64,000 nucleotides of DNA, from NCBI GenBank assembly GCA_040437565.1, contig JBDOQK010000004.1, positions 620,001 to 684,000 on the forward strand, written 5' to 3'. Shown piece by piece: positions 6,544-55,769 of the stretch; within the stretch, counting starts at the first letter, position 1; each line of letters begins with the position of its first letter. The notes under the pieces were generated by a model. It searched no databases. It was given only the letters and a program-made list of their open reading frames with translations, and was not told where the DNA came from. The DNA is from Albugo candida (taxonomy: Eukaryota). A program made the position numbers and the translations under genes.

Positions 6544-8674
6544 ATGACAGACCATCCTGCATTTCTTGTATTAGATTACCTCCGATCTAAACGCATGCAT
6601 GAACCAGCAAAACTGTTTGCCACAAAAGCGTCTATCGTGGACAATGACGCAGAATCTTCACTTCGTGATGATCGTAAATCGAAACTAGAGACTATCATTA
6701 CCGAAAGTATGAGTCTATCCGAACAGCCTTCNNNNNNNNNNNNNNNNNNNNNNNNNNNNNNNNNNNNNNNNNNNNNNNNNNNNNNNNNNNNNNNNNNNNN
6801 NNNNNNNNNNNNNNNNNNNNNNNNNNNNNNNACGCATGCATGAACCAGCAAAACTGTTTGCCACAAAAGCGTCTATCGTGGACAATGACGCAGAATCATC
6901 ACGAAGTGAAGACCGTAAATCGAAACTAGAGACTATCATTACCGAAAGTATGAGTCTATCCGAACAGCCTTCAAAAGAGAAAGAAGACTTTTCTTCACCA
7001 TCGAATATGTGGAATCGAGCACAAATTGAGAGACTTCGAGCAGCAATAAAGAAAACCAAAACCATTTCTGACAAAGCGTCTCGATGGACAGCCATTGCTT
7101 CTCACGTGGGTGCGAGCAAAAAAGTTTGCTATTTAAAATACAAGGAATTGAAGTCAGAATTAGGAGGGGAGAATGGAGGGTCAGCTTCCAAATCGAAAAG
7201 GAGTATCAGTGCAGCGCGAGGATTTGCGAAAGAACCAAAAGAAGAACCAATAATTTGTGATAACATCTGCCAAGATGATAACATTTTTGCAGTATCCTCA
7301 AGGATCAAAGAAGTTAGTGTTATGGTGGCTGACTCCACCCTTCTGTTGGAGAACTTTGATGAGTTTGTGCACAAATCGGAATCTCACATATCTCAGGCCT
7401 TACCGACAGGTGAAATTATGAAGCGGAATAAAGTTACACTTCCACGTGGTCGGAATATGAAGCATGATGAAGCTGATGCAATTCGCGAGATCCTGTTTTC
7501 AAGCTCATCAAAGAGAAAGATGTTTGGTCCACACTGGGAAATGCAGGTACAATTAGCCACCATATAAATTTTGATCTCGCTGATTGTAAGGCAATTTGAG
7601 CAGGGATTTTCTTTCTCGAATGCCAAGAATCTGCGTTACGGACTTGTACAGGTCGAAGGAGGTCCATGCGGCGTACTGGCAGTTGTGCAAGCCTACGTGA
7701 TTCGATACTTATTTGATAAGGTCAACTTTGATGATACATCAGTCGACTGGCAAAATGTAAGATTGCTTCTTTTATTGTCAAAAAGTAAGCACTGAAAGTG
7801 CGAGTAATCTCAGCCCGACAAAAGAACGCAAGAAAACGTATTATCAGCCTCGTTGGCGCATATTTTAACACAAGCATCGCAAAACAATCGACTTCAAATT
7901 GTACTGCCTAAAGCCACAAGCGATCCCAAGTCAAAGCAATTACGATGGGTCCAGGATTTGCAGATTTTTGATTTTGATAGTGATTGCAATCCAAAAGAAG
8001 ACCTGAAAACTTTTTTCATGCAGCATGTAGAGCATTTTGCTGAGCCCAAGGGAAATGGATTGATTCTTTTCGTGCTATCAGTCATCCTATCTGCGGGTAT
8101 CGACCGTATACGAGATGCTATGGATACGGGTAATTCCGAATCGTACTCATCAGCTGAATCTGGATGTTTGATTGGGAGTCATGAGTATTGCACTCAGGAA
8201 CTGGTCAACTTATTGTTATGTGGTCATGCTGTAGGAAATGTGTTCGACAACATGCAGACACTCGATTCTGGTCCTTCCTCTCAGCCCATGATATTAAAAG
8301 GAATTCCTGCGAAAGGAACTGTTGGATTTCTCACACTTTTTGAGAGTTACAACTACATTCAGGTTGGTTCTTTTCTTAAGAGCCCAAAATACAACATATG
8401 GGTCATTTGCAGTGAATCGCATTATTCGGTTCTGTTCATGCCATCTCCTTATACTATAAGCAGCGATTATGACAAGTGTAGTGAGTTTGATCTCTTTTAC
8501 TACGATGGATTAGCAAATCAGGAAGAGACCATCAGGCTTACTATTACCAATTGCGCTGAACAATCCGAGCTGGTGGGAAAAAATGATGAATTGATACCAC
8601 CGTTGAATCTTGTGATCAAGACGAAGTGGCCAAAGGCAATAGTTTCGTGGAATGATACGGATCCTTTACTCTAA
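6544..8674 (+). CDS. MINDY4: MINDY-family (MINDY3/4, DUF4205) deubiquitinase with a LisH-like N-terminus and a SANT/Myb-like domain; two introns near 7547-7590 and 7757-7813; interrupted by an assembly gap with duplicated flank
   Basis: [18 protein letters not shown] (catalytic Cys), [31 protein letters not shown] (catalytic His), YYDGLANQ and a KTKWP C-terminus. Confidence 0.85.
6591..6972. repeat. 141-bp direct overlap flanking the 100-N gap at 6732-6831 (copies 6591-6731 and 6832-6972); the copies differ by a micro-inversion and one SNP
   Basis: Direct comparison of the two flanks. Confidence 0.9.
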
Positions 8675-9971: not shown

Positions 9972-12900
9972 ACACGAGCATTGGTCTGATTCCACTATAC
10001 AATGGGTGATATCTCTTGTGTGCGTGGCATCTCTGATATACTGATCACACTAGCGCTACGCTGCCATGTGATTGACATAGCTCGACCAGATGACGGGAAA
10101 AGCGATGCGCAGTTTATGTTCAGCCAACAGCCAATGAGTGCAATCAGCATTGTATATGCGACAAGATAAAAGGCAGTACGACTGAATCAGATCACTCCAC
10201 TTGCAACTCACTATTTTCAGATGAAGCAGCATGATATTTGTCCAGATAACAGCAAACATCATGTACTATGAACCCAATCCTGCTGCATTCGTGATTTTCC
10301 GCTTTATCATCACATATCAAGCTTCCATACTTTACTCGCTCTTTCTGTCTCGTTTCTCTTTTGATAAAAAGAAAGAAAAATTAAAACAAAGGGAAGATTG
10401 AGTGGTGAAATAGGTACCTTTCGCTTCTATGTATCTTGTTACGCATCTCATGCGCTTATATTTTTTCTAGTTTTGCTTCACGAACGAAGTTTGTCATCAA
10501 ACACAAAAAGAGCATTATTCAAAATCATCCGACTTACGCCCATACTCATCTGACTTGACCGCTTCATGTTCGCAACAGCCGTCGCTCAGATCATCAATCC
10601 GAATGATACAGCTTCTCATGCTTCTCCACATGTGAACAGGACGGTATCCAGTTTGTTTTCGTCTCCTCTCAGCACTATTGCACAGTACTTATTAATGAAT
10701 GATGTACCGGTGCAGGGAGAATCAGAAGCGGTCATGATGGAAGCGTTTATAGCTGCACAACGCAGCTACTTTGAATCTCGATTTTACATCTTGCAGCTAT
10801 TTCTGCTGGCGGGCTATGGGATTATGTTTACTCTATGCGTTATTCTCATTTGTTATATGCGATATAATCGCAGTGTCGCGTTCCGAGGAGATGCCGCAGC
10901 AGCTCGAAAAATCATACTACCAGCATTCGAACCTCTATTGTGGATCCTTGGTGGAACTACTGGCATCTACACTGTTTACTTTTGTGTGGTTATAAGTTGC
11001 AAAGTTTTCACATCCGATATATCAAAAGTTGCAGCTGAGTTTTACTATTCGGGCCGTCAGTTTGTGTTCCTCTCGGTGATCGTGTTCATGCTACAAAAAA
11101 GTGTGTCCATACCATCATTACAGCGCACTGTATTGACTACTTTTGTATTCTCAACGTACACGATACCAATCGTATGGTACATGTCAAAATATGGCAGCAA
11201 TACCGATCTATACTACGTGACAACAATCTCACGCGCCTTACTTCTGCTCCTGTACACATACGTCTTCATCCATCCTCCGTTAAGAGCAAGCAAGCGCACG
11301 ATTAGGGAATTCTGCGCATTCGCATACCTTTATTATACATTGTTGTTCACATACGGAGAGCTATTCCATCATTCTGTAGTCGAGGCAGGTTTCAATCTCA
11401 CTTATGCAAATTTGTTATGCGGATCCTTATGCCCACTCGTGATTTGGCGGGTCTTAAAGGCAGATACCGAATATTGGCGTGGAATGGGACAGCGAGCTTG
11501 TGCTCTCCAGACTCTTTTCCGTCAGAAACACAACATTCATGAGCGTGTTTCGTCTCAGGGACTCCATATTCTGATTGAGATGCATCGCAAGTTCATTATC
11601 GATTTTGCGTATTTAAAGTTAAAACAGCGAATTGGAATGGGTGCAAGTGCGGTCGTGTTCAAAGGAGTACTACACTCGAGAACACCCGTTGCAATCAAAG
11701 TCTACACGCCCTCGCAATATACGGAAGAAACTGTAGCGGCATTTTCGCAAGAAGCCGCATTATCCGGCGCTTTGAAACACCCCAACATTGTCAAGTTTTA
11801 TGGAATGTGTGTTTGTCCGCCGACAATCTGCTTGGTCTCTGAATTATGTCTCGGCAGCTTGGAAGATGTTACCTTGACGATAGTCAGACGTTTGCAATCT
11901 CCGTTCAGGGAGCAGTTTATCATCAATTTGAACTACATGTTAGACGCTGCTCGGGCTGTTGCATACATTCACAGCTTTTCGCCAGCATTTGTGCATCGAG
12001 ACATCAAACCGGCTAATTTTCTCGTTGATTCCGAATCTAACGTCAAATTGACAGACTTTGGAGAGTCCAGAAGTTTACCACGAGCTCAGATTGTCGGTAG
12101 CAATAGTGACCAAGGAAGCAGAGACACAAATGCTTCCGTTAGTAACAGCCATAGCAATCAAGAAAAGATAAATGTGTCATCGCAAGGAATAAAAATGACG
12201 GTTCGAGGCACAGTGGACTACATGGCACCTGAAGTAATCAATGGGAAATCTGGAGTTGCAACTTATGGGGAAGCAGCGGACGTGTATTCATTGGCCATCA
12301 CGATGTGGGATATATTGTACCCCGATGTGGAAAAATTCCCAATGATCAACAAAAACCATCATTTGCAGATTTTCGACGTTGTGATGGATGGAAAGCGTCC
12401 ACCGCTCGGACAGGATCTACATCCAGCAGTTTACGATGTTATTGAAAGCGCGTGGCATGCTGACGCTAGGATGCGCCCATCTGCTCAGGAAATTGTTCGA
12501 GTGCTCGAATCCGTTCAAGGAGAAGTCCTTGGGACGTTAGCAGTACGAATAGCAACTCAAATAGAACAGGACGCAAATATACAACATGANNNNNNNNNNN
12601 NNNNNNNNNNNNNNNNNNNNNNNNNNNNNNNNNNNNNNNNNNNNNNNNNNNNNNNNNNNNNNNNNNNNNNNNNNNNNNNNNNNNNNNNNACACGAGCATT
12701 GGTCTGATTCCACTATACAATGGGTGATATCTCTTGTGTGCGTGGCATCTCTGATATACTGATCACACTAGCGCTACGCTGCCATGTGATTGACATAGCT
12801 CGACCAGATGACGGGAAAAGCGATGCGCAGTTTATGTTCAGCCAACAGCCAATGAGTGCAATCAGCATTGTATATGCGACAAGATAAAAGGCAGTACGAC

Positions 12901-28569: not shown

Positions 28570-28751
28570 GGTACAGAGGAATTGAACGGACTTGCTTGAC
28601 TAATTTTGGCNNNNNNNNNNNNNNNNNNNNNNNNNNNNNNNNNNNNNNNNNNNNNNNNNNNNNNNNNNNNNNNNNNNNNNNNNNNNNNNNNNNNNNNNNN
28701 NNNNNNNNNNGGTACAGAGGAATTGAACGGACTTGCTTGACTAATTTTGGC
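28570..28751. repeat. 41-bp direct overlap flanking the 100-N gap at 28611-28710
   Basis: GGTACAGAGG...TAATTTTGGC is present on both sides of the gap. Confidence 0.9.
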
Positions 28752-33311: not shown

Positions 33312-33789
33312 NNNNNNNNNNNNNNNNNNNNNNNNNNNNNNNNNNNNNNNNNNNNNNNNNNNNNNNNNNNNNNNNNNNNNNNNNNNNNNNNNNNNNNNNN
33401 NNNNNNNNNNNTATATATGCGCACGAAAACACCCTTTGTCCAGGCGTAATTTGTGGTAGCAGCGTGCCAAAATATGACATCATGCCTGACGAGTTTGTCG
33501 ATTGCAAGCGTATAAAAAACATGTCGTAAGCGTGACTGATAGTCGTTACTCGAAATAGACTTCCATATTGAACGTCATGAAGCTTTTGGGGTTTCAACGA
33601 TGGAATCTAGCTGCGCGAATGTGCTCATGCGACTCATGTAGTCAATCATCAAGTGGTTACTCGTGTGATGAAATCTTAGTAACTCAGGTCATTGAGAAAT
33701 GTGTTGCTTTGTTTTTGTAGGTGATAAAATGGAGTGGGAAGGGAAAAAGTGTGCCGCTTTGCTAATTCATGTACACGAGCAGTCTATAA

Positions 33790-34782: not shown

Positions 34783-36189
34783 ATGCCTCAGGCTTTACTC
34801 AATTTACGGACCACTCCCAACTATGGGAGTACGGGCACGACTAAAGATCATGAAGCAAGTCCAAGACATCGATTGAAGTCCTGGTATATGCAAATGTTCC
34901 TGATCAATCTTGTCGAGTTCTCAGCAGAGTCTTCCCGGGGGATAGTTTTACCAACTCTATTCCTCTACGGAAAATCACTGGGTGGAAGCATTGCGTTCAT
35001 GGGAATCTTGACCTCTGTCTTCTCTGTCGGTAGACTTATTTCTTCGACTGTATTTGGCTGGATGTGCGATCGATGGACATTCAAAGCTGTTTACATCATT
35101 TCGTCGGTGATTTGTCTGTTTGGCAATGTTCTATATCTTCTTGCAGACGAACACGTTGTTAATTCGAAGTATCTTTTGGCTATCAGTCGATTCATTGTCG
35201 GCTTTGGAGCAGGTAATCGAAGTGTATGCCGAGCAAACGTTGCCGCTATCACAACTGTCAGTCAGCGTCTGAAATATTTGACCATTTTGGCAACAGTTGT
35301 ATTCCTTGGGTATGCGCTGACTCCTGGTTTTGGATCGTTAGTAGCAAATATTGATGTTTATCTTCTTGGTGTGCACTTTAATCAATTCACGTCACCAGGA
35401 ATGATCTTGGTCATCTTGAGTGGATTTACGATAGTTTTGGTACTACTTTTCCATGAGGAGGACCTAGGCATTCATGACGGACCCTGTGAGACACCCGACA
35501 ACCGTAATCCCGACAAAAAACTCGAAAATTCAACGCATCTTCCTACCAAGGTCGTAAATATGGGGGCAGCTATATTCATCTTTTTGAATTTCAATGCACG
35601 TGGTATCCTATCCGTTTTCGAAACTATAAATATTCCCTTGTTCCTGGAAGTAACGGGAAGCAGTTCTAAGCGCACAGAATCGGTTGTGGCAGCGTCAAAC
35701 TTTCAGTTCTATCTAGGACTATTGGGTCTAATCACCTATTTACTCATCGAGTATTTCCGGCACAAAATATCAGATGTTTGCTGGGTACAAACCGGATTCT
35801 CTATGCTATTTGTCGGAAACCTCTTGCTAGTGGTAGCACCGTCCAATCTTACGTTCTTGCGCTTGACTTTGTCTGAAGTGTTTGTGTGGAGTATTGGTTG
35901 TCCGATTACCTCTGCTGTTATCGTAGCAGCATTTTCAAAGTTACTTGGTGGTCGCCCGCAAGGAACCTTAATGGGTCTTCTGGGCTCTGCTGGATCGGTG
36001 TCGCGCATTGTACTGCCTCTGTTACCGGGTGTGTTAGCAACTTTGTCGCCTGTTTTTTGTATCAATTTGGTGCTTTGTGGTATCAGCATTGTGTCGCTGG
36101 CATGGTATAGCCGACTGGTATATGCCCACAAAGAAGGCCTGACAAGAGAAGCACAAATGAGCACATCGCAAGGTAGCGGTCAAGCTTAG
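34783..36189 (+). CDS. Major facilitator superfamily transporter (MFSD8/CLN7-like), 468 aa
   Basis: About 12 hydrophobic helices, motif A FGWMCDRW, SRFIVGFGAG, and FSKLLGGRPQGTLMGLLGSAGSVSRIV. Confidence 0.88.
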   Translation: MPQALLNLRTTPNYGSTGTTKDHEASPRHRLKSWYMQMFLINLVEFSAESSRGIVLPTLFLYGKSLGGSIAFMGILTSVFSVGRLISSTVFGWMCDRWTFKAVYIISSVICLFGNVLYLLADEHVVNSKYLLAISRFIVGFGAGNRSVCRANVAAITTVSQRLKYLTILATVVFLGYALTPGFGSLVANIDVYLLGVHFNQFTSPGMILVILSGFTIVLVLLFHEEDLGIHDGPCETPDNRNPDKKLENSTHLPTKVVNMGAAIFIFLNFNARGILSVFETINIPLFLEVTGSSSKRTESVVAASNFQFYLGLLGLITYLLIEYFRHKISDVCWVQTGFSMLFVGNLLLVVAPSNLTFLRLTLSEVFVWSIGCPITSAVIVAAFSKLLGGRPQGTLMGLLGSAGSVSRIVLPLLPGVLATLSPVFCINLVLCGISIVSLAWYSRLVYAHKEGLTREAQMSTSQGSGQA

Positions 36190-36891: not shown

Positions 36892-39800
36892 ATGCACATT
36901 GAATCAAGTTCTGATTCTCTTTCAGACTCAAACGATGTTTATCCTATTCGACCCAAACAAAAATCTGCAAGCACACGGCCGCACACAGTCAACGGGAAGG
37001 CGGAGGACAAGCAAGCATGCTTACTCAAATTAGACGCACTAAAAGAACTTCTAGGATCTTCTGGAGGTCAGAAGCCCAAAATATCACGGCGACAACTTCG
37101 AGAGAAATTTTGCAAGTATGATAAGCAAGCTACGGGAATCATGACAAAAGACAATTTCAAAAAGTGTCTTGATAAGACTGGGATGCATATGCTGAAAGAG
37201 ACTTCCTTTAATGATATAATTGACTGCTTCGCTGATGTCTCCAGCACTACGGTCGACTACAACTTGTTTTTGGAGTGTATTTGTAATGTTCGAGTGTCCG
37301 AAAACATGAGCTCGATCGCTGAGAACTTACGTTACAGGATACTACGTTCAAATGGGAAAGCAAGTGCTACGTCTAAAGTAAAATGTAATCTTTTTAAAGA
37401 GCTGTTAAAACTGGACAAACTAAAACGAGGATGGATCACAGATGAGCAGTTTGAAGAGTACCTAGAGAAGGATGATCGAAGATCAGGCGTACGCTTCCAT
37501 TTGGAACAAAATGAAATCGACTGGCTACTGGAGCGCTTTTCTTTCCAATTTGGTCGGCATCAGCATGGTATTGACTACCAACTATTCGCTTCTTGGATTC
37601 AACCAAGCCAGCATTTTGATATGGATCGCTTGCGTGATACATTCCAAAAGCTATTACGCGTGGGGATCGCGAAGCGTGGATGGGATATTGAATATATGCT
37701 GGAGGCTCTCGATACAAATCATTGTCGTTACATAAGTGAAAACGATTTAAGAAGACTGATTCAAGATCTCGGTTTGCCCCTCAGTGAAGCACAAATACAA
37801 TACCTCATCGAGATTTACGATAAGAACCACGACGGGAAGATAATCTACAAGAATTTATTGACTGGATTGGGTGATAAAAGAACTCCAGACAGCCCAAGAA
37901 AGAAGTCCCAAGTTGATCCGGGTCAGGGCAGTGCAAATACCTCTGCAAATAATCAAAATACCATACTACGTAATCTTAGCTCGCGCTTTCGAATAGGAGG
38001 TTCCGATCGAAAGGAAGGTCCTTCACATGGAAAAATAAGTATTGTGGGCAAGACTGTGGAAAAAAGTATTGGAGCTACAGAATCGAAGCACAGGGAAAAT
38101 AAATATTACAATAAACCAAAATTCTTTGGAAAAACTACATCAATCAAAAGCAAAAAAAGAAACCAGAGCACATCATCTGAACAAAGTGAACAAGAGGAAT
38201 CCAAGGCGAAGGTAGGCTTAAGCAGCCGCAGAGGTGCACCGCAAAACTCACGGCGACCAAAAAGCGCTACATCATCCGATTCAAGTGAACATCCAGTAGT
38301 TTCAAGGAGGATTGCGAATTCAACGGATTCCTCTTCAGCCGAAACCTCTAGTGATCATAAAATATCAAAATCCGCCCGTATTGACCAACGTCGTATGAAG
38401 GATACGTCTTCGGGTCGTGTAAATATAAAAGAACGAGAGGATAGGAGAGCACTGGGGGAGAAGAGAAACGAACAAAGTAAGCAACGCATCAAAGCAGATA
38501 GGTGGACGCATACGAAGAATGTACCAGAAAAAAGAAAAACGAAATTCGGGAAAAGCATTCCAACAGCTGAAATCAAGGCCAAAGATACAAACTCTGCTGT
38601 GCAGAAAGAGAAGTCTAAACGTAAAATGAAATCGTCTGCGAAATGTGTCCATACATACGACAAATTAACAAAGCCTTTGAAGCAAATCTTGCGTCGTGCT
38701 TTCGAATTTTTCGACATCGATCGGAGTGGTGCAATTGAAGTACAAGAGCTGGAGATTGTTCTGCAAGCTTTAGGGTATGAGGTCAACTCGTTTGATGTAG
38801 CTAGCGAAATGAGACATACTGACTTGGACTATAATGGTCGACTCGATTTTCAGGAGTTTTGTGCTTTCATCAAGCGCATCATGCAACAAAAACAATTCCT
38901 TATGACTAGTTTGAGAGAACACGAGATACGTAAAGCTTTACAAAGCTTGGATCGAGATAATAATGGATATTTGGATCGCAAAGAATTCGTCTACATGACA
39001 GATCAAATTCTGCAAGTTCAGCTCACTCCAACGCAGCAAACGTCGCTGTTTGACTTCATAGATGTTAATGGGGACGGAATGATCCAAGAGGAAGAATTCA
39101 TCAGTTTTCTGAAATTATACCATCAGCTCCAAGTCAATCGACTGACATCAAATCTCAAAATGCCAAAATTTCCTCCTACAATCACGGATGCGATCAAGAA
39201 ATTGATACACGGATCCCCAGTTGATGTGGATGGCAATCTGCTGATGCTTCTTGGAATTCCGTCAAACTTTCGTCGGGCAGTGTCATCCTTCGTGAGTAGT
39301 GGAAAATTGGAGCAGAATTCTATGGAATATGTTCTGTCCTTCCCAGCACCTCAAGTAGTGACGAGCTTGTCTCAACTAACCACAACAAGCACTTGTAATC
39401 ATTCACGACCACCAAGTTACAATCCCATCGAAACTGCAACTGACTTGGCTNNNNNNNNNNNNNNNNNNNNNNNNNNNNNNNNNNNNNNNNNNNNNNNNNN
39501 NNNNNNNNNNNNNNNNNNNNNNNNNNNNNNNNNNNNNNNNNNNNNNNNNNAAATTTCCTCCTACAATCACGGATGCGATCAAGAAATTGATACACGGATC
39601 CCCAGTTGATGTGGATGGCAATCTGCTGATGCTTCTTGGAATTCCGTCAAACTTTCGTCGGGCAGTGTCATCCTTCGTGAGTAGTGGAAAATTGGAGCAG
39701 AATTCTATGGAATATGTTCTGTCCTTCCCAGCACCTCAAGTAGTGACGAGCTTGTCTCAACTAACCACAACAAGCACTTGTAATCATTCACGACCACCAA

Positions 39801-41305
39801 GTTACAATCCCATCGAAACTGCAACTGACTTGGCTGCGAGGGTGTATAATGATTCAAGCAATACAAAAATTGAAAAGACCATTTTAGCCAAAGCAGAAAA
39901 ATATCAATTTCAGGCCATTCTCTCGCTGAAGCGTGCAACGGGCATTCCAAAACCGTTTGATTCCCGTGAGAGCGATGTGGTCAAACGTTGTGTCAATGTC
40001 TGTATATTTCAAGAATATAAGATTACTCACAGAAACGCTCGCGATCGACGTCACCTTCCGAATACAGGAATTAAGAACTGTTTTCGTGCGGGTCGAATTG
40101 TCGGCAATGTTCTCGAAATTCCAGTCTCGTGGAACCCGAATGAAGAGGATGTCTGGGAATTTTCCAAACGAGCTACGAGTAAACACGACTACAAATTCCT
40201 GGCTCGGACCAACTTGGTCAGTGATGAATTATTTCTCCTGATTGAATTTATCGTACATTTGAAAGTCTCTGATGTCAAGGATAACTCACATAGCCTAGAC
40301 AAAGACTTGCGCAATGTTAAAAGCAAGCGGAATGATTCTGGCGAGCGTTCCTCTTCAAGCCGTGGATTAGTCGAGATGGTATGCTGCTGGACCAAAATAC
40401 CACTTTACCTCTTGCTTGAAAGACGCACTAGCACATTTCGGACGCGGGAAAAGCTGCTCGGGGGAACCGTGTTTAGTCCTTGCGAGGTTGAAGAGGACGA
40501 AATAATGCGTCGACGTTATGGATGGCGAGCTTTTAGCAATGTGTTCCGAGCTACACGGCCTCCGACACCTATAGTCGGGATAAAGTGCTTACCAATCAAA
40601 AATTTGCCGGAAGAATATCAAAAATGCGTGTACAAAATGCCCCCTCTTTTACTACTACCATACTCAGCTATCTCTATCACGGCGGAATACATGATGTACA
40701 TGAATAGCTTACTGTCAGAGACATCAGTCGCATCGAGTGGTACGACCACAGGCTGTTGATAGATGCTCAATCTCACTAATTTTCGCTCTCATTCAAGTTG
40801 TAGCGTGTGCGCCAGCACTGAAAATTTTACCCCGCATTATCGAAAATAACTTGGCATTATCATCATTCTCTCGAGCTTTTGAGTCTGAAGTAACAGGATA
40901 CGAAGAAGTACAGGTCAGATTAACTTTATTGTCTGTTCTACAATGAGCTTATGTCGATGTGTAGGATCGCCAAAGAAAACTGGAAGATATTTGCTTACGT
41001 TTTTGGCCTTTATTTATGAAGTGTCACGGTGACCTTCCTAAATCCGTATTGAGTGCTCATAGAAGACGATCTTTAGCTAACGTTGAGGAATCACAAATCG
41101 CTTGGAGCTCTGAATCTGGCTTTGATATTAATCAAGTGAAAATGCACCCCCAACTGCTTGAAATGGCAGTACAAGGGTAAGCTTTCTTGAAACAAGTCCA
41201 AATGTCTCACGTACTTTTCCACACAGTACTCTGCAAATGCAAGACACTGATATTACGACAGTTCCATTCCACATCAAAGAAACGGCATTTAAGAGGATGG
41301 TGTAA
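36892..41305 (+). CDS. Multi-EF-hand protein with a C-terminal nephrocystin-1 (NPHP1)-like domain; three short introns near the 3' end; gap with duplicated flank at 39451-39550
   Basis: Canonical EF loops DKNHDGKI, DIDRSGAIEVQE, DLDYNGRLDFQE, DRDNNGYLDRKE and DVNGDGMIQEEE. The C-terminal motifs ILSLKRATGIPKP...VVKRCVNVCIF...GNVLEIPVSW...WEFS...LLIEF...EMVCCWTKIPL...LLGGT...VPFHIKE parallel the NPHP1 C-terminus. Confidence 0.75.
39166..39835. repeat. 285-bp direct overlap flanking the 100-N gap at 39451-39550
   Basis: Same sequence at a 385-nt offset on both sides of the gap. Confidence 0.9.
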
Positions 41306-41584: not shown

Positions 41585-44500
41585 ATGGACCCAACTTCCA
41601 AGTTGCAAGATGAGTTATCTTCGTCTATTGCGAATCAGCATGCACTCACGGCTTCCCCCGATATAAAGAAAATGCTTAGAAATCGAGGTCCTCTCTTCAA
41701 TCCTGCAAACAAGAACCGAGAAGGAGCTCAAATGTGGAAAACCGTCAGAAAAAATTTACTAAACATCGGTACTGGTGCTGTACGATCGCGTTTGAGACCT
41801 CGCAAAGCTCCAATTTATCGAATCAATCCGGAATCGAAGGAAAAACGCGCGTGGGACGTTTTCGTCTCTATGTGTGCACTATATGCCACCTGTATAGTTC
41901 CCTACCGAATTTGCTTTCATCGTGAGGCATCCGGTGCCTACAGAAATCTCGAAAGCATTATCGATTGGGCTTTTGCGCTCGATATCGTTGCACATTTTAT
42001 CACTGGTATATACCTGCCGAATGGTGAAATATGCTATGATGTTGCCTATATCGCGAAAATATACGTCCGAGGCTGGTTCTTCTTTGATCTCATTTCTACG
42101 ATTCCATTCGAGTATATCGCCAAGTGGGCTGGGTATTCAGGGAACACGCAAGCTTCCGCGTCAACAAAGCTTTTGAGGGGAATAAAAATCTTGCGCTTGT
42201 TCAAACTAGTGCGAGTTAGGAAACTGGATACAATGTTGCAAGATTTCGAAGAAAGCATGCTTGCAAATCAAAGTGTCATATCTATCATCAAAATCGGCCT
42301 CGCGATGCTCTTCATCTCACATTTAGTCGCCTGTTTATGGTTCTATATCGCACGAAGCGATTATTCTTATAAAAATCCCGCCTCTAACTGGATTGATTCG
42401 CTCGAGCAAACCGAAAGCTCGTCCGACCAAGCTGCTTTGCAGTATCTAGTCTCAGTGTACTGGGCAATCATTACTATGTCAACGATTGGTTTTGGAGATG
42501 TAGTAGCTCAAAATGATCTCGAACGACTAATTAATGTTCTGATAATGGCACTGGGAGTATCTCTGTTCGGCTATGTTATTGGAACCATTTCTACTCTTGT
42601 TGCCAACATAAATGTCACAGCAACTTTACATGAAGAGCACTTGACACTAGTGAAAGAATACATCATTAGTAGAGAGTTATCTCCTCGGATCGGCAGGAGA
42701 GTAAGAAATCATTTTGAATATTACTATCAAAATCGGTCCGTTTTTCGGGAAAAGCACCTACTTCAGCGCTTACCGGCGACATTTCGAGACAAATTGGTAC
42801 CTGATTTTCAACATGCTTGAAAATTACAATGGTGAAATGATCGTGCTTTGTAGATTCACCACATCCACTTGAAGACTATTACTTCCATCAAGTATTTAGA
42901 GCTTTGCAATAAGTCTGTCGTAAATGATTGCGTGACATTGATGCAGCCGTTCAATGTCTTGAAGGATGAGTATGTGTATGCTCAGTTTGAAATTGCAGCA
43001 CATGTTTTTTTTCTTCACAAAGGAAAAGTTGCATTGATCAGGACCAATCCTAATGACAAGAATCAGATCAGACTCGGCTCCATCAATTCTGGGGATCATT
43101 TTGGTGAGCTAGAAGTTTATGATGAGCATGTTGGGAATGGTATCCGAATAGGGTCAGCAATCGCTAAAATGTATTGCGAACTTACATTTCTGTCACGTGA
43201 GGCGATCTCTAGAATCAGTAAGCCTGGTCTTCAGATGTCACGCTGATGCCTGAGTGTTGATACTTTAGGTGCGAAATGGCCTGAATTACTGACACATTTT
43301 CGAGCTGCAGCTCAAGCAACCTCGACAAGTTATCGTCAAAAAGCAGAACAAGCTGTTTGGGACACCGATTGGTCAGCGGCCCAACATCATCTGATCGAAG
43401 AAGTCGATCTTTTCTCAACACAAAAGGCGACATCTGTGGCTCGTAGCAAATCCGACGTTAGGAAGGTTTTCCCCGGCAATGATGGGACGACAGTGACATC
43501 GTCGGACATCGAATCTACGGTTTTGGCATGTTCAGCATCGCACAGCACTCGTGGTTCATTATTTAGTTGCAACGAAATGAAATTAAGGTCCACTGATGCG
43601 CGGAGCAAAACAACGTTACGTTGTATGGAATCCAGATACATGAAGGCATGCAAAAGTGGAATCGCATTGCTGATAACGACAATTCTTCGAGCGATAGGTC
43701 GAGTAATCGATGAAGATGGTAGTCGAATAATAGAAGGAAGCGCTACAGCGTCATCAGAAATAGATGAACAAGGTGATAGAAACTCACACAATATATCGTC
43801 AAAGATTCAGACTACAAGGCACACACGGAATAGCATCGCCAATCTCAAGGGCCTCATTGCCACGATTCGAGACTCAACAACACCGGGAGCTAGACTACAT
43901 ACGTTTACAACCGAGAAGATGTTGTTAAAGGGAAGACTTATTCTTCATCCGCAGGAAGGATTTGTAGTGACATGGCAAATCGTCGCAAGCACGGGGATTT
44001 TATATTCGATGATCATTATCCCCTTTCGACTTGGATTCAATTACGATGCCATCGGCTTTTGGTTTTACTTTGAGTTAGCGATTGATGTGTCCTTCATGTT
44101 TGATATTCTGCTCAACTTCCGGACAGCTTATTTCAACGAAGAGCGAATTATGGTTTATAATTCACGAATCATTGCAATTCGATATTTAAAAGGGTGGTTC
44201 ACGCTCGATTTACTTTCGTCAATTCCATTCGATCAAGTCGTCTTGTAAGTCTAGCGCAATGATGCATTCCTTGTGATAATCGGATCTGCATGATATTAGT
44301 TCGTTCAGCACATCGTCAGCACAGGTAGCATTTTTACCGACAAGACTACTTCGTCTGGCTCGAACTACCCGGTTGCTGAAGCTGGTCAGGCTCATTCGAC
44401 TGAGTAGGGCATCCGGAAAACTTCGCGAATTTTTCGAGGTTAGTGAGCTAAATGATCGTTTTCTTCATCAGGTTTCACGCAGAGATTTGTTTCAGGTGAG

Positions 44501-48202: not shown

Positions 48203-51200
48203 CTATGACATCAAGTGAGCCAATATATGAATCGTGTTATCGATTCTCTTGAATTTATCGTCCAAGCAACAGTGAATGGCATGTGCAAAGCTTTCTCGAG
48301 CTTCTTTTTCTGAAAGTTCCGGAGCTAGGGCTGTAACCAGGTGATTGATGTCATCTCGACCTGTCAGTTCTGGCATATCTGCTGGAATCATCAGTAATAG
48401 CAACGTCACCAAAAGATGAACGTGTCTACGCAAGACGCAGTAGGCTTTGCAACTTGTTTCAACAAATTTCTTGAACTCGTTCGATTCTATTCCCCCCAAA
48501 ACATGAGCCATCTCTCTGGTAAATACAAACGGCGTTCGTTCTCGCTTCACGCCCAGCTATAAAGAACAAGTGTCAGCATGGACCCAGACATACTTTGCAT
48601 GTTGATCGTACCTGATATTTGAAATGCCCGAGAAAATGACCAAAATCGATATGGAAATAGCGGCCACTTGTCGAGATCTATCACAACACCAGCATCAAGC
48701 TTCTCGGAGAGACCTGAATCTTCTGCGGCTTACCATTATGTTATCATTATGACGATCACCAATTCCAAGAGCACAGGTCGCTACGCAATACCCGGCACAG
48801 GAACGAAGGAACAAATCAACAGCTTTTTGATGTGACTCTGGATCAGGATTGTTTGCCTGAATCCAAGACGAAAAGCTGGGATCCTTGAATGCGCCCAAAA
48901 TCCCAACACGCTTGTGTATTTCAGCCGTTGTCACCGAATTTGGAACTACTTGCAAAACACCCGTCACGGGTGATGTCGCGACACATCCGTAAGGCTCCAT
49001 TGCCAAATTAAGACCTTCTTCACGCCACATCTCATCCATCAATCGTATCAACTGCAGTGTCAAACAGTCTTGTCGAACATCATCGCCAGCTTTAAAAATG
49101 ATCGTCACCGGATCGCCACCAGCTTCAGCATTTTCGAATACCAACCATAAGGGTTTTTTTGCCGAATCTAAAATCCGGCATTTATCGATGATGATCTTTC
49201 CCACCTCAATTCGGGGATCAAGAGGTAGTTGAAACGAAGGTGGTAGATTCTCATTCAAAACCGCCAATTGCTCCTGCATCACCCGTCTCATCTCATCCCA
49301 TCCTTCTTTCTTTCGTGCTTTAATGTGCTGGCAAATCTGATCCAGCAAACCACCGTAGGAGAAGACTTCATCTTGCAATTGTAGTATCGCTCGCATTTTT
49401 TGGCTGCAGACAGCGAGATACCCATTAAGTAGAACACCATATCTTTCGCGATATTGTTCATGATGAAATTCTACCTTCATTGACCAGAACAGATCAAAAC
49501 CGATCTGATTTGGATTTCGAATTGCTCGTTCTATGAGAAAGGTTGCAAGTGGACAAAGATGATGATTCTCGAATTTTAGAGCTTGTACTAACTGGGGAAC
49601 ATAGTAGCGCAACGATGTGTCTGGCATTTCCGCTAATTTTGAAACAGCAAAAGACCGAAGCTTTGGATTAGCAAACTCGCCGTCTAATAATCCAATGTAA
49701 GCAGCTTTGTGAGTAGGATCGGACCATGTAGGTAGTAAGGTAAGAGCGTTTTGGATTTCAGACTTATAACTCCAGTTGACACACGACAGAATGCGAGGTA
49801 ATGCTTCTGGAAGGTCCATAAACGCATCCCGATGACTCCACATTTGCGTCTTCTGATACGCATTCGGACGATAAAGTGGGTCAAGTGAAATAATACGACG
49901 TAATTCCACTATCTGTGAGTCAATATTGGATTGCTCTGCGTCATCATCACCGACCGTGGCTTCTTGCAGCCAATTCTTCAATGACCCGATAAAACCTCGG
50001 GATTTTGCATGCGGTTGGTCAGGCTTCTGTTCTGCTGCATCAAAGGTACCGCCTAAAGTTTTCTCAATGTCACCCGAGGACTCGTTGGTCAAGCTGTTCT
50101 CTAAATCGGCACAGTCTTCCGAATTTTCTGAGATATCGGAAGGGAACTGAGGCAGTAAATGTCGAGCTAATTCTGTTTTGACAGACTGAACAAATTTGTA
50201 GATATTCGGGTAGCCAGATGATTCAGTTTGATCACCTTCCCACTTAGAGACAGTGATGATAGCAAGCATCCATTCTGCGCGTTCTTGCTTGGTCTCGGCT
50301 GAAATGATATACTCTCTAGAAGATTCGGCTGGGCGAACCTTGAAACAATACGTTTGCCGTTCCTTCCGAGTTCCTTTGTTGACTGGTGCGGTTGTGTATT
50401 TTTCATTCATATCGTCCGCTACTACCACCAAGCAGTTCCGTAATGGAATAGATTTGCGCACAACATTTCGGTCATCCGTGTAGGTCAAAGTGCACGTTTC
50501 ATGATCTAAGACAAACCATCGTCGACGCCATCGAGTCCATCGAGTATATCCTAGCTTGTGTAGCCATCCTTCTTTGTGTAGAATAATCTTTCGGTCTTCA
50601 TAGGAGCTCTCCTCCCGTGCCAATTTCGGGGTTGATCTAGGATTTGTTGGGCTTTCTGATTCAGCTCCTAACGTCCAATGGAACTTGACACTCCGATCAA
50701 AAGTGCNNNNNNNNNNNNNNNNNNNNNNNNNNNNNNNNNNNNNNNNNNNNNNNNNNNNNNNNNNNNNNNNNNNNNNNNNNNNNNNNNNNNNNNNNNNNNN
50801 NNNNNNAAAGTGCACGTTTCATGATCTAAGACAAACCATCGTCGACGCCATCGAGTCCATCGAGTATATCCTAGCTTGTGTAGCCATCCTTCTTTGTGTA
50901 GAATAATCTTTCGGTCTTCATAGGAGCTCTCCTCCCGTGCCAATTTCGGGGTTGATCTAGGATTTGTTGGGCTTTCTGATTCAGCTCCTAACGTCCAATG
51001 GAACTTGACACTCCGATCAAAAGTGCCAAATTCGATTTGCAAAACTGGATCATCCGGCGTGACAGTGTGTGGAACTGGACCAATATTGCAAGTGTACAAG
51101 TTGCTGCACATAGCCAAGTACCGTGTTCCCTGCAGCAAAACATCGTCAATTTCGAATATATTAACGCCTGTCACAAGAATTCGCTCGATCTCTTCAGCGC

Positions 51201-53737: not shown

Positions 53738-55769
53738 ATGTCGAATGATCAAAGCAGTAGAAAGAATTCAGAGACTGTGATAATCGATGCTGGCGATACG
53801 GATGACCGCTCTGAGGACGAGGATATTGCAAAGTTCTTAAACGATTATACTGTTGCTCAACATAGTATCACTAATTCCTTGCTTACGAACGTATTGAAGA
53901 TCAATGAAGCGATCAAACTCGGGGATGAAGAGGGAAAAGATGACGATGTCATCGAAGTTATTCGAGTCAATCCTTCGATTTTTACGGAATATAAGCCTAA
54001 ATCCTTAAAAGAAATGTCTGGTAGAAGAGATTTTAATAGAAGGTGTGCGAAAAACGTACCGGAAAAGAAAATAAAGCTATGCGAGGAAGTTGCTGATGAA
54101 ATGCGTTCATTCGACGTCGAGATAGAAGGTGGATTAGGTAAAAGATCGGAATATGAACGTGTGCGTGACAGGGAGAAACGTGTAAAGAGAAAGTTAGAGC
54201 CTATTTGTAATGATAATGGCGCACATGGATCGATGAATCAGACNNNNNNNNNNNNNNNNNNNNNNNNNNNNNNNNNNNNNNNNNNNNNNNNNNNNNNNNN
54301 NNNNNNNNNNNNNNNNNNNNNNNNNNNNNNNNNNNNNNNNNNNACGTGTAAAGAGAAAGTTAGAGCCTATTTGTAATGATAATGGCGCACATGGATCGAT
54401 GAATCAGACACTGACAGCTGACAGAGTCATAGAGTTGCATTCGAGTGAAGATGAAAGTGCCAATTCATCACCGAAATCAACATTCAGGTCTGAGAATGCG
54501 AATGATTCGATAAAAACGACCATGAAAGACTTCAAAGCATATTTCGAGTATCTTCGAAAATGTGTCACGAAGATAAATTTTGATCAAGAGATGCAGCGAA
54601 GAACAAGTCTTAATGAACGTTTTCATGTGGCTGTGAAAAGCATTGAAACAGAGATCGACCGTTACCGCCAAATGTTCCTGCGATATACTCGAAAACATCA
54701 TTGGTCAGAGAAAGTGATGGCTTGTATTCAATCGAACACTCTCCGGGAAGTTAAAGAGAGATCGCAAAAGTTTGATGATGGCTACTGTGAAAATTGCGCA
54801 ACTCAGAAGCGTTTTGCAAAGTACATGCTCATATTCTCAGGTTACAGACTTGATGCCTGCCGATTGTACGAATTTGGTTGGACGCACAGGTTTGGCCTTC
54901 ATGTAATGCTACGGATTTATCTATCTCTAATCGAATCTACTCGCATAGGATCCTGCAAGCTTCTACATGTGAAAATTATCAGCACGAAGAAGTTCTCGTC
55001 GATGATACTTGCTACGCGGTACGTTAAGCCGTCAGGTATTTCCGTATGTTATCGGAGGGGAAGAGCTTCTCACCTTTTGCTTTATTAGCCTGTCGTATTG
55101 TACTGGACACTGGTGCATGTCAAACGACTTTGGTGTGCCACAATTGATGCAATGAAAGATGAAGGTGGTCAGTTGAAGCTTTCCGACACATTTATGGAAT
55201 CTGAATACAGCCGATACAAAGAACTTTTGAAATCTGTACTATTTGTCAGCTCTGGAAGAGATTTGCAGAGCTTGAATTTAGAAAAAGTGTGCAAGTTTTT
55301 TTCACAACCAGAATGTACAAGCCCTTATTTATTACACGCGGAGGTAGACTCAGATTCGGATTCTGATATGGAAGAGAATATTCATGGTGTGCAGGATAGT
55401 GCAACAACCTTCGAAGATGGTGGAGAAGCTACGCTCAGGTCGGACACTGACTCTATCAAGAAGAGCCAAGGTCCGCAAGCACCATTGGACCTAAGCAATG
55501 GTGCCTCTTCTATGGATGACACAGACAAGGTAACACAAGAGGTCAAAGGCACAAACAGTTGTTTACTCTGCTACAATCATCTGATTGATGGGGCTGTGAT
55601 ACATGGAAACTATCTGCATTCGTATTCCTGCTATCAATGTGGTATGCGCCAGTTTGATCAAAGAATTGGATGCTCCGTGTGCAATCGTCCGATTGACAGG
55701 GTTGTTCATCTGTTACCGCTCACCGAAGCCTCAAGAAGGTCGATTACAACCCTAGCAGAACCGATCTGA
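53738..55769 (+). CDS. Protein with a DUF4211/CCDC82-like region and a C-terminal MDM2-type (C2H2C4) RING finger; two introns at ~54890-54948 and ~55019-55088; gap with 66-bp duplicated flank
   Basis: CENCATQKRFAKYMLIFSG and a later LYWTLVHVK segment resemble DUF4211. CLLC...VIHGNYLHSYSCYQC...CSVCNRPI has MDM2-like ligand spacing. Confidence 0.65.
54178..54409. repeat. 66-bp direct overlap flanking the 100-N gap at 54244-54343
   Basis: ACGTGTAAAGAG...GAATCAGAC is present on both sides of the gap. Confidence 0.9.

Follow-up and report, generated by a model that had tools for sequence, protein, structure and literature searches.

A probable EF-hand form of nephrocystin-1 in the oomycete Albugo candida and its corrected gene model

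Gene structure and an assembly gap within the gene

We analysed a 64,000-nucleotide (nt) stretch of the genome of the oomycete Albugo candida (assembly GCA_040437565.1, contig JBDOQK010000004.1, positions 620,001 to 684,000 of the forward strand; hereafter the window). Positions 36892-41305 of its forward strand hold a single spliced gene for a protein of 1289 amino acids (aa), very probably an orthologue of nephrocystin-1 (NPHP1) in its EF-hand form. From its N-terminus to its C-terminus, the protein consists of degenerate EF-hands, a Ser/Lys/Arg-rich linker, four EF-hand loops, a predicted C2-type beta-sandwich and a conserved helical tail (Table 1). A first-pass annotation of the same DNA had placed the start codon (ATG at 36892) and the stop codon (TAA at 41303-41305) exactly where we find them. 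It did not mention the gap and repeat inside the gene or the three introns near its 3' end, both of which are described below.

The orthologue of Albugo laibachii Nc14 (AlNc14C4G597; UniRef F0W0F4, gi 325180124; P0004) shows the parts in the same order: its N-terminal EF-hand pair is degenerate, its four EF loops are canonical and its C-terminal tail is the same. It is 1303 aa long, compared to 1289 aa in A. candida, and its deposited model is complete, whereas that of A. candida is damaged by an assembly gap. When the corrected A. candida protein was aligned with it end to end, the two were 67.8% identical.

The gap consists of 100 N at 39451-39550 and is followed, at 39551-39835, by an exact 285-nt copy (100% identity) of the sequence at 39166-39450. 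In a tblastn comparison, residues 772-866 of the A. laibachii orthologue matched both copies, which lie in different reading frames, and the segment occurs only once in all 27 other sequences that were aligned with the C-terminal piece of the window protein (P0002). The window has seven gaps of exactly 100 N (6732-6831, 12590-12689, 28611-28710, 33312-33411, 39451-39550, 50707-50806 and 54244-54343), and exact repeats of 41, 285, 220 and 66 nt flank four of them. Since the copies are out of frame across exactly 100 N, the orthologues are single-copy and other gaps show the same overlap, we conclude from these sequence comparisons that 39451-39835 is a scaffolding artefact: contig ends that overlap were linked through a placeholder gap when they should have been merged. 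We rejected a genuine in-frame duplication of the 285-nt segment on the same three grounds. The gap at 6732 also has a flank repeat, which is inexact and about 141 nt long. The flank repeats suggest that overlapping contig ends were systematically left unmerged, an error that can corrupt gene models throughout the assembly.

With the artefact removed, the coding sequence (CDS) is 3870 nt long. Its three short 3' introns were first indicated by tblastn with the A. laibachii orthologue and were then found to be skipped exactly in contigs from two public runs of one study, for which the life stage is not recorded (X1, 4148 nt; X2, 3969 nt). These runs carry no RNA label on record, and we took them as RNA solely on the ground that their contigs are spliced; X4 was taken as DNA because its 68.5-kb contig retains introns. 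X3 gave only two short unspliced pieces, which are uninformative on expression, and contig depth was not taken as a measure of expression level. The comparison covered the stretch of the window after the gap, so that the contigs fit one copy of the repeat without proving it. Upstream of position 39552, the X1 and X2 contigs continue for 2485 and 2346 nt, respectively, and end upstream of the ATG if the repeat is collapsed. Because they run from there to the 3' end, the EF-hands and the C-terminal domain lie on one spliced contig. The spliced contigs differ from the window at three positions (39875 A>G, 40268 T>C and 41107 G>A), and the X4 contig shows eight differences and a 1-nt deletion in intron 3; most likely these are strain differences.

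The window protein is 100% identical to a deposited entry named 'hypothetical protein ABG067_000965 [Albugo candida]'. The deposited model (P0003; window 36892-40759, 1225 aa) crosses the gap by way of an invented intron and contains residues 778-841 twice: it comprises residues 1-841, a second 778-841, the sequence on to residue 1154 and then six residues translated from intron 1. It therefore carries 65 surplus residues and lacks the true final 135 residues of the protein.

Table 1. Features of the gene and its predicted protein, in positions of the window
Feature	Position	Strand	Basis and remarks
Whole coding region, probable EF-hand-type NPHP1 gene	36892..41305	+	Open reading frames (ORFs), translation and tblastn with the A. 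laibachii orthologue; 1289 aa without the gap artefact and three introns; corrected CDS 36892-39450 + 39836-40739 + 40798-40913 + 40965-41176 + 41227-41305
Exon 1, first part, ends at the assembly gap	36892..39450	+	853-aa open frame (P0001)
N-terminal degenerate EF-hand-like repeats (residues ~60-335)	37069..37896	+	Pfam EF-hand_8 at 280-317 and weak EF-hand-type matches
Basic Ser/Lys/Arg-rich linker (residues 336-590)	37897..38661	+	S 16.5%, K 14.5%, R 9.8%; no Pfam match there
Calmodulin-like four-EF-hand block (residues ~592-745)	38665..39126	+	Pfam EF-hand_7, EF-hand_6 and EF-hand_1
Putative Ca2+ loops at residues 608, 644, 687 and 724	38713-38751, 38821-38859, 38950-38988, 39061-39099	+	Loop pattern
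Scaffolding artefact (100 N and second 285-nt copy), from sequence comparison	39451..39835	.	To be dropped from the gene model
Exon 1, second part	39836..40739	+	Translation; splice joint 40739/40798 in X1 and X2 contigs
Predicted NPHP1-type C2 beta-sandwich with long inserted loops	39893..40636	+	AlphaFold model; P0002 residues 114-361, gene-model residues ~873-1120
Conserved, mostly helical C-terminal domain after the C2 domain	40637..41302 (across introns 1-3)	+	Helices at P0002 353-390 in the model; motifs in 31 relatives
Intron 1, 58 nt, GT..AG	40740..40797	+	Spliced out in X1 and X2 contigs; retained in X4 DNA contig
Exon 2	40798..40913	+	tblastn with the A. laibachii orthologue, spliced contigs, corrected CDS
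Intron 2, 51 nt, GT..AG	40914..40964	+	Spliced out in X1 and X2 contigs
Exon 3	40965..41176	+	tblastn with the A. laibachii orthologue, spliced contigs, corrected CDS
Intron 3, 50 nt, GT..AG	41177..41226	+	Spliced out in X1 and X2 contigs
Exon 4 with terminal PF-H-x-x-E motif and TAA stop	41227..41305	+	tblastn, spliced contigs; motif kept in distant relatives

Domain architecture and family placement

A Pfam scan of the N-terminal 853 aa returned EF-hand families only (EF-hand_7, E value 1.6e-33), with the best matches at residues 600-628, 678-740 and 280-317. The last of these, an EF-hand_8 match that lacks a canonical loop, bears out the degenerate N-terminal cluster described in the first-pass annotation; Phytophthora and Pythium orthologues retain up to two canonical loops in this region. 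The basic Ser/Lys-rich linker that the annotation had noted next is also present and is probably disordered, judging from its sequence. The calmodulin-like block of four EF-hands that follows was likewise recovered. Three of its four loops pass the strict PROSITE pattern, while the loop at residue 644 fails solely by a Tyr at loop position 4, and the ligand positions of all four are at least 90% conserved among 28 sequences. The loops are kept in orthologues and in more distant relatives alike. Because the four loops are intact and conserved, it is likely that the block binds Ca2+. Neither piece of the protein had an SH3 domain among its Pfam matches, in agreement with the proposal that EF-hands take the place of the SH3 region.

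Pfam assigned no family to the C-terminal piece. An AlphaFold model built earlier from 28 close orthologues was of too low quality for use (predicted local distance difference test score [pLDDT] 45.7). With 51 diverse relatives, the model, which excludes the last 135 residues of the protein, reached a pLDDT of 78.5 and a predicted template modelling score of 0.78, and showed the strands of a beta-sandwich at P0002 residues 119-347 followed by helices. When this model was compared with 48,161 chains by VIA-align, 41 chains scored Z ≥8. The best match was the C-terminal domain of AIDA (Z 11.3, root-mean-square deviation 2.9, 136 residues aligned), followed by the C2 domains of E-Syt, PI3K, Munc13, PKC-delta, DOCK180 and CEP120 (Z 8.8-9.6), of which the first four scored Z 9.2-9.6. 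A C2 domain is named in the titles of 25 of the 50 matches listed, and most of the remainder are proteins that we take to contain one (PI3K, PLC, cPLA2, DOCK DHR-1, PTEN and AIDA). The top rows of a Foldseek search were also C2 domains (best E value 4e-3). We conclude from the model that the C-terminal region is a C2 beta-sandwich with long inserted loops. Sequence searches of PDB, run with the protein alone and with a profile of 31 sequences, returned only rows at chance level; no NPHP1 C2 structure is deposited there.

The motifs that the first-pass annotation had listed for the C-terminal region are present in the translation, and an alignment of 31 relatives without EF-hands has conserved motifs all along, beginning where the C2 domain begins and ending in a terminal P-F-x-x-x-E. 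Animal NPHP1, a transition-zone protein mutated in nephronophthisis type 1, also has the NPHP1-type C2 domain and, after it, a helical domain, to which the helical tail of the Albugo protein may correspond. The Albugo protein shares with animal NPHP1, in order, the motifs I-P-x-P, R-x-V-x-x-C-x-F, x-S/G-N-x..W..W-x-F, F/L-x-R-S/T-N, L-x-E-x, E-L/M-S/V-C-G/C-W and G-G-T. The two differ in their N-terminal halves: human NPHP1 is about 730 aa long and includes a coiled coil, whereas the Albugo protein, of about 1289 aa, has EF-hands and a long basic linker at its N-terminus and no SH3 domain that we could find.

Such a form has been described before. Zhang and Aravind (2012, Cell Cycle 11:3861; PMC3495828) give the architecture of NPHP1 as SH3, NPHP1-C2 and an alpha-helical domain, call its N-terminal region variable, and report that in some clades EF-hands stand at the N-terminus in place of SH3, suggesting that these EF-hands respond to Ca2+. 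They describe the ancestral ciliary C2 domains as apparently not Ca2+-binding. Because the region is variable and holds EF-hands in some clades (PMC3495828), the coiled coil and SH3 region define the animal form and not the NPHP1 family. The EF-hand form of NPHP1 and its presumed Ca2+ response have thus been in print since 2012, and neither our identification nor its central inference, including the replacement of SH3 by EF-hands, is new.

The NPHP1-C2 alignment in the supplement of that paper contains human NPHP1 (gi 189491774 and others) and A. laibachii gi 325180124, together with rows for the Phytophthora sojae and P. infestans orthologues and for Ectocarpus, Micromonas and ciliates, including Paramecium. 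Compared by eye, the printed row for gi 325180124 matches the A. laibachii orthologue P0004, and the motifs of the window protein stand in the same order as in the human rows, as the first-pass annotation had proposed. The C-terminal piece of the window protein is 83% identical to F0W0F4. We place the window protein in the NPHP1-C2 family because this 83%-identical orthologue is a row of the published alignment beside human NPHP1; the C2 fold of the model agrees with the NPHP1-like C-terminal domain that had been proposed. The family identity is the part of which we are most confident; that the gene encodes, as a whole, an EF-hand-form NPHP1 whose core is shared with animal NPHP1 and whose N-terminal half is different is also, in our judgement, quite probable.

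Distribution of the EF-hand and C-terminal fusion

A word-indexed search found 40 long relatives, which came from Albugo, many Phytophthora, Pythium, Globisporangium and Nothophytophthora, along with a partial match in Ectocarpus. All 40 have EF-hand families, and in 39 of them the match extends over 95% or more of the C-terminal query. A phmmer search of 1.84 billion representatives yielded 61 proteins at E ≤0.001 (20 of them at E ≤1e-10), and the named relatives among these include Thraustotheca, Aphanomyces, Lagenidium, Heterosigma, Chrysoparadoxa, Chlorochromonas and the rhizarian Spongospora. We scanned 54 distinct proteins with Pfam, namely the phmmer matches and five cluster members, omitting six very short fragments and six relatives that were already characterised; EF-hands were present in 19 of the 54. 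The fusion of EF-hands with the C-terminal region is conserved across oomycetes and other flagellated protists. A flagellated stage occurs in Albugo, Phytophthora, Pythium, Globisporangium, Lagenidium, Aphanomyces, Thraustotheca, Ectocarpus, Heterosigma, Chrysoparadoxa, Chlorochromonas and Spongospora. Downy mildews, including those that form zoospores, are absent from our lists of relatives, which are therefore not exhaustive.

Other searches added little. A profile search of a set of 5.8 billion proteins returned only the first sequence of the alignment itself and was uninformative, and a single-sequence search limited to proteins of near-equal length found one protein. Two metagenome relatives (P0090, 2096 aa, and P0105, 2122 aa) have an unusual architecture, with Tudor/Agenet-like domains at the N-terminus before the EF-hands and the NPHP1-like domain. 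One of the scanned relatives, P0088, contains immunoglobulin repeats and is probably a false match. The Pfam entry PF23564.2 is precomputed for 36 of the 40 long relatives and was not reproduced by local Pfam scans of P0004, P0005, P0013, P0033 and P0040 (three of them at E values up to 10).

Transition zone, calcium and alternative explanations

On balance we favour a location of the protein at the flagellar transition zone of zoospores, by analogy with the animal protein. PMC3495828 counts the NPHP1 family among the core components of the transition zone, and Albugo releases motile zoospores, which Hyaloperonospora has lost. The protein would then belong to an NPHP1-4-8 module at the zoospore transition zone, as animal NPHP1 suggests by analogy, with its C2 domain and helical core forming a membrane-proximal scaffold of the Y-link or gate. 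Ca2+ would be bound by the EF-hand block, and a rise in Ca2+ would alter the conformation or the partners of the protein. Candidate processes that might be controlled in this way are gate permeability, beat reversal signalling and flagellar loss at encystment. A real Ca2+-dependent role of the EF-hands is a tentative proposal, one that we lean slightly away from. It is improbable that NPHP1 itself senses Ca2+ at the zoospore transition zone, such that a rise in Ca2+ at encystment would act on it directly, open or dismantle the gate and lead to shedding or retraction of the flagella.

An experimental parallel comes from Paramecium. In PMC7093003, depletion of NPHP4, RPGRIP1L or CEP290 is reported to make cilia resistant to deciliation by Ca2+/ethanol. 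Paramecium RPGRIP1L (NPHP8) is, like the Albugo protein, a C2-containing protein of the NPHP module with EF-hands gained in a protist lineage; it belongs to another family, and its EF-hands lie at the opposite, C-terminal end. The survey in PMC7093003 lists NPHP1 as absent from Paramecium, although the NPHP1-C2 alignment of PMC3495828 contains Paramecium rows. An NPHP1 form without SH3 may be easy to miss in such surveys.

Several observations weigh against the identification or against the role proposed for the protein. The link to animal NPHP1 comes from a published alignment and a comparison of rows by eye rather than from a computed score. None of the 54 scanned proteins has an SH3 domain and none of the 61 phmmer matches is named nephrocystin, and Foldseek gave no match at E ≤0.001. 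In a protein-language-model atlas, the neighbours were a chordate 'SH3 domain-containing protein (fragment)' (0.94) and 'putative nephrocystin 4' (0.93-0.94), not NPHP1; the recognition value was low. The canonical loop pattern fits nowhere in the N-terminal cluster of either Albugo species, a loss of canonical loops. The extra EF-hands of Paramecium RPGRIP1L are dispensable for its localisation and for Ca2+/ethanol deciliation, according to PMC7093003, and we are therefore cautious about EF-hands as a deflagellation sensor. Finally, the P. infestans orthologue, PITG_07078, is not among the 257 flagellum-associated proteins of PMC3471859 in the three supplementary files that were searched.

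The atlas neighbours raise the question of whether the C-terminal domain might be another type of ciliary C2 domain, NPHP4-like or otherwise, instead of NPHP1. The C2 domains of NPHP4 are ciliary, appear not to bind Ca2+ and belong to the same module, and they are the nearest named neighbours in the atlas, where a Nephrocystin-4 cluster with NPHP4_C2_2nd also appears (0.88-0.89); moreover, the fold alone separates C2 domains poorly. However, the order of domains and the motifs of NPHP4 differ from those of the Albugo protein, whose motif order agrees with the human NPHP1 rows, and atlas scores of this size are only leads. In the published alignments, the NPHP4 C2 sets contain a different A. 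laibachii protein (gi 325185592), and the orthologue of the window protein sits in NPHP1-C2 (PMC3495828). We consider this alternative very unlikely. A false joining of two genes would be suggested by the position of the gap, whose 100 N and repeated flanks stand precisely at the divide between EF-hand block and C2 domain, and by the restriction of the contig comparison to the stretch after it. Nevertheless, the frame is open from 36892 to 40739 once the repeat is collapsed, the A. laibachii protein is colinear across the junction, both parts occur together in 39 of the 40 long relatives and in distant relatives of other phyla, and upstream of the post-gap copy the spliced contigs go on for over 2.3 kb. 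The proposal that both parts belong to one gene is thus upheld, and two separate genes are exceedingly improbable.

A protein of NPHP1-family descent might instead serve outside the flagellum, as a membrane-associated C2 protein that senses Ca2+ more generally, for instance in sporangial cleavage, in vesicle traffic or in signalling. Relatives are labelled 'calmodulin-like protein', 'camk protein kinase' or 'EF-hand domain pair' by their sources, labels that reflect only the EF-hands, and the absence of PITG_07078 from the published list of oomycete flagellar genes would fit such a role. We found no localisation or stage-specific expression data, the spliced contigs being from runs of unrecorded life stage, and our literature searches turned up no experimental work on an NPHP1 of the EF-hand type. 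The searched part of a life-stage RNA sequencing supplement (PMC5322657) contains PITG_07076 and PITG_07077 but did not yield PITG_07078, and we draw no conclusion on expression from this. The flagellated stage common to the taxa of all named relatives and the treatment of the family as a core transition-zone component (PMC3495828) argue against this, and we regard a non-flagellar role as unlikely.

The gene is flanked upstream by a 468-aa major facilitator superfamily transporter (34783-36189, forward strand; MFS_1, E value 4.2e-28) and downstream by an ion-transport protein with a pore domain (41585-42820, forward strand; Ion_trans, E value 3.5e-23; Ion_trans_2, E value 1.6e-13), whose ORF may continue by splicing. 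By reading, the sequence after the pore, which lies outside the scanned part, resembles the start of a cyclic-nucleotide-binding channel. That a cation channel lies beside a putative Ca2+-binding flagellar gene may be coincidence.

In practice, this work corrects the gene model and gives a name to a protein that had been entered as a 'hypothetical protein'. Whether Ca2+ acts on the zoospore transition zone is a testable question for oomycete biology. If NPHP1 were indeed a Ca2+ sensor, the EF-hand forms of oomycetes and other protists would combine in a single protein a step that is missing there in animals.

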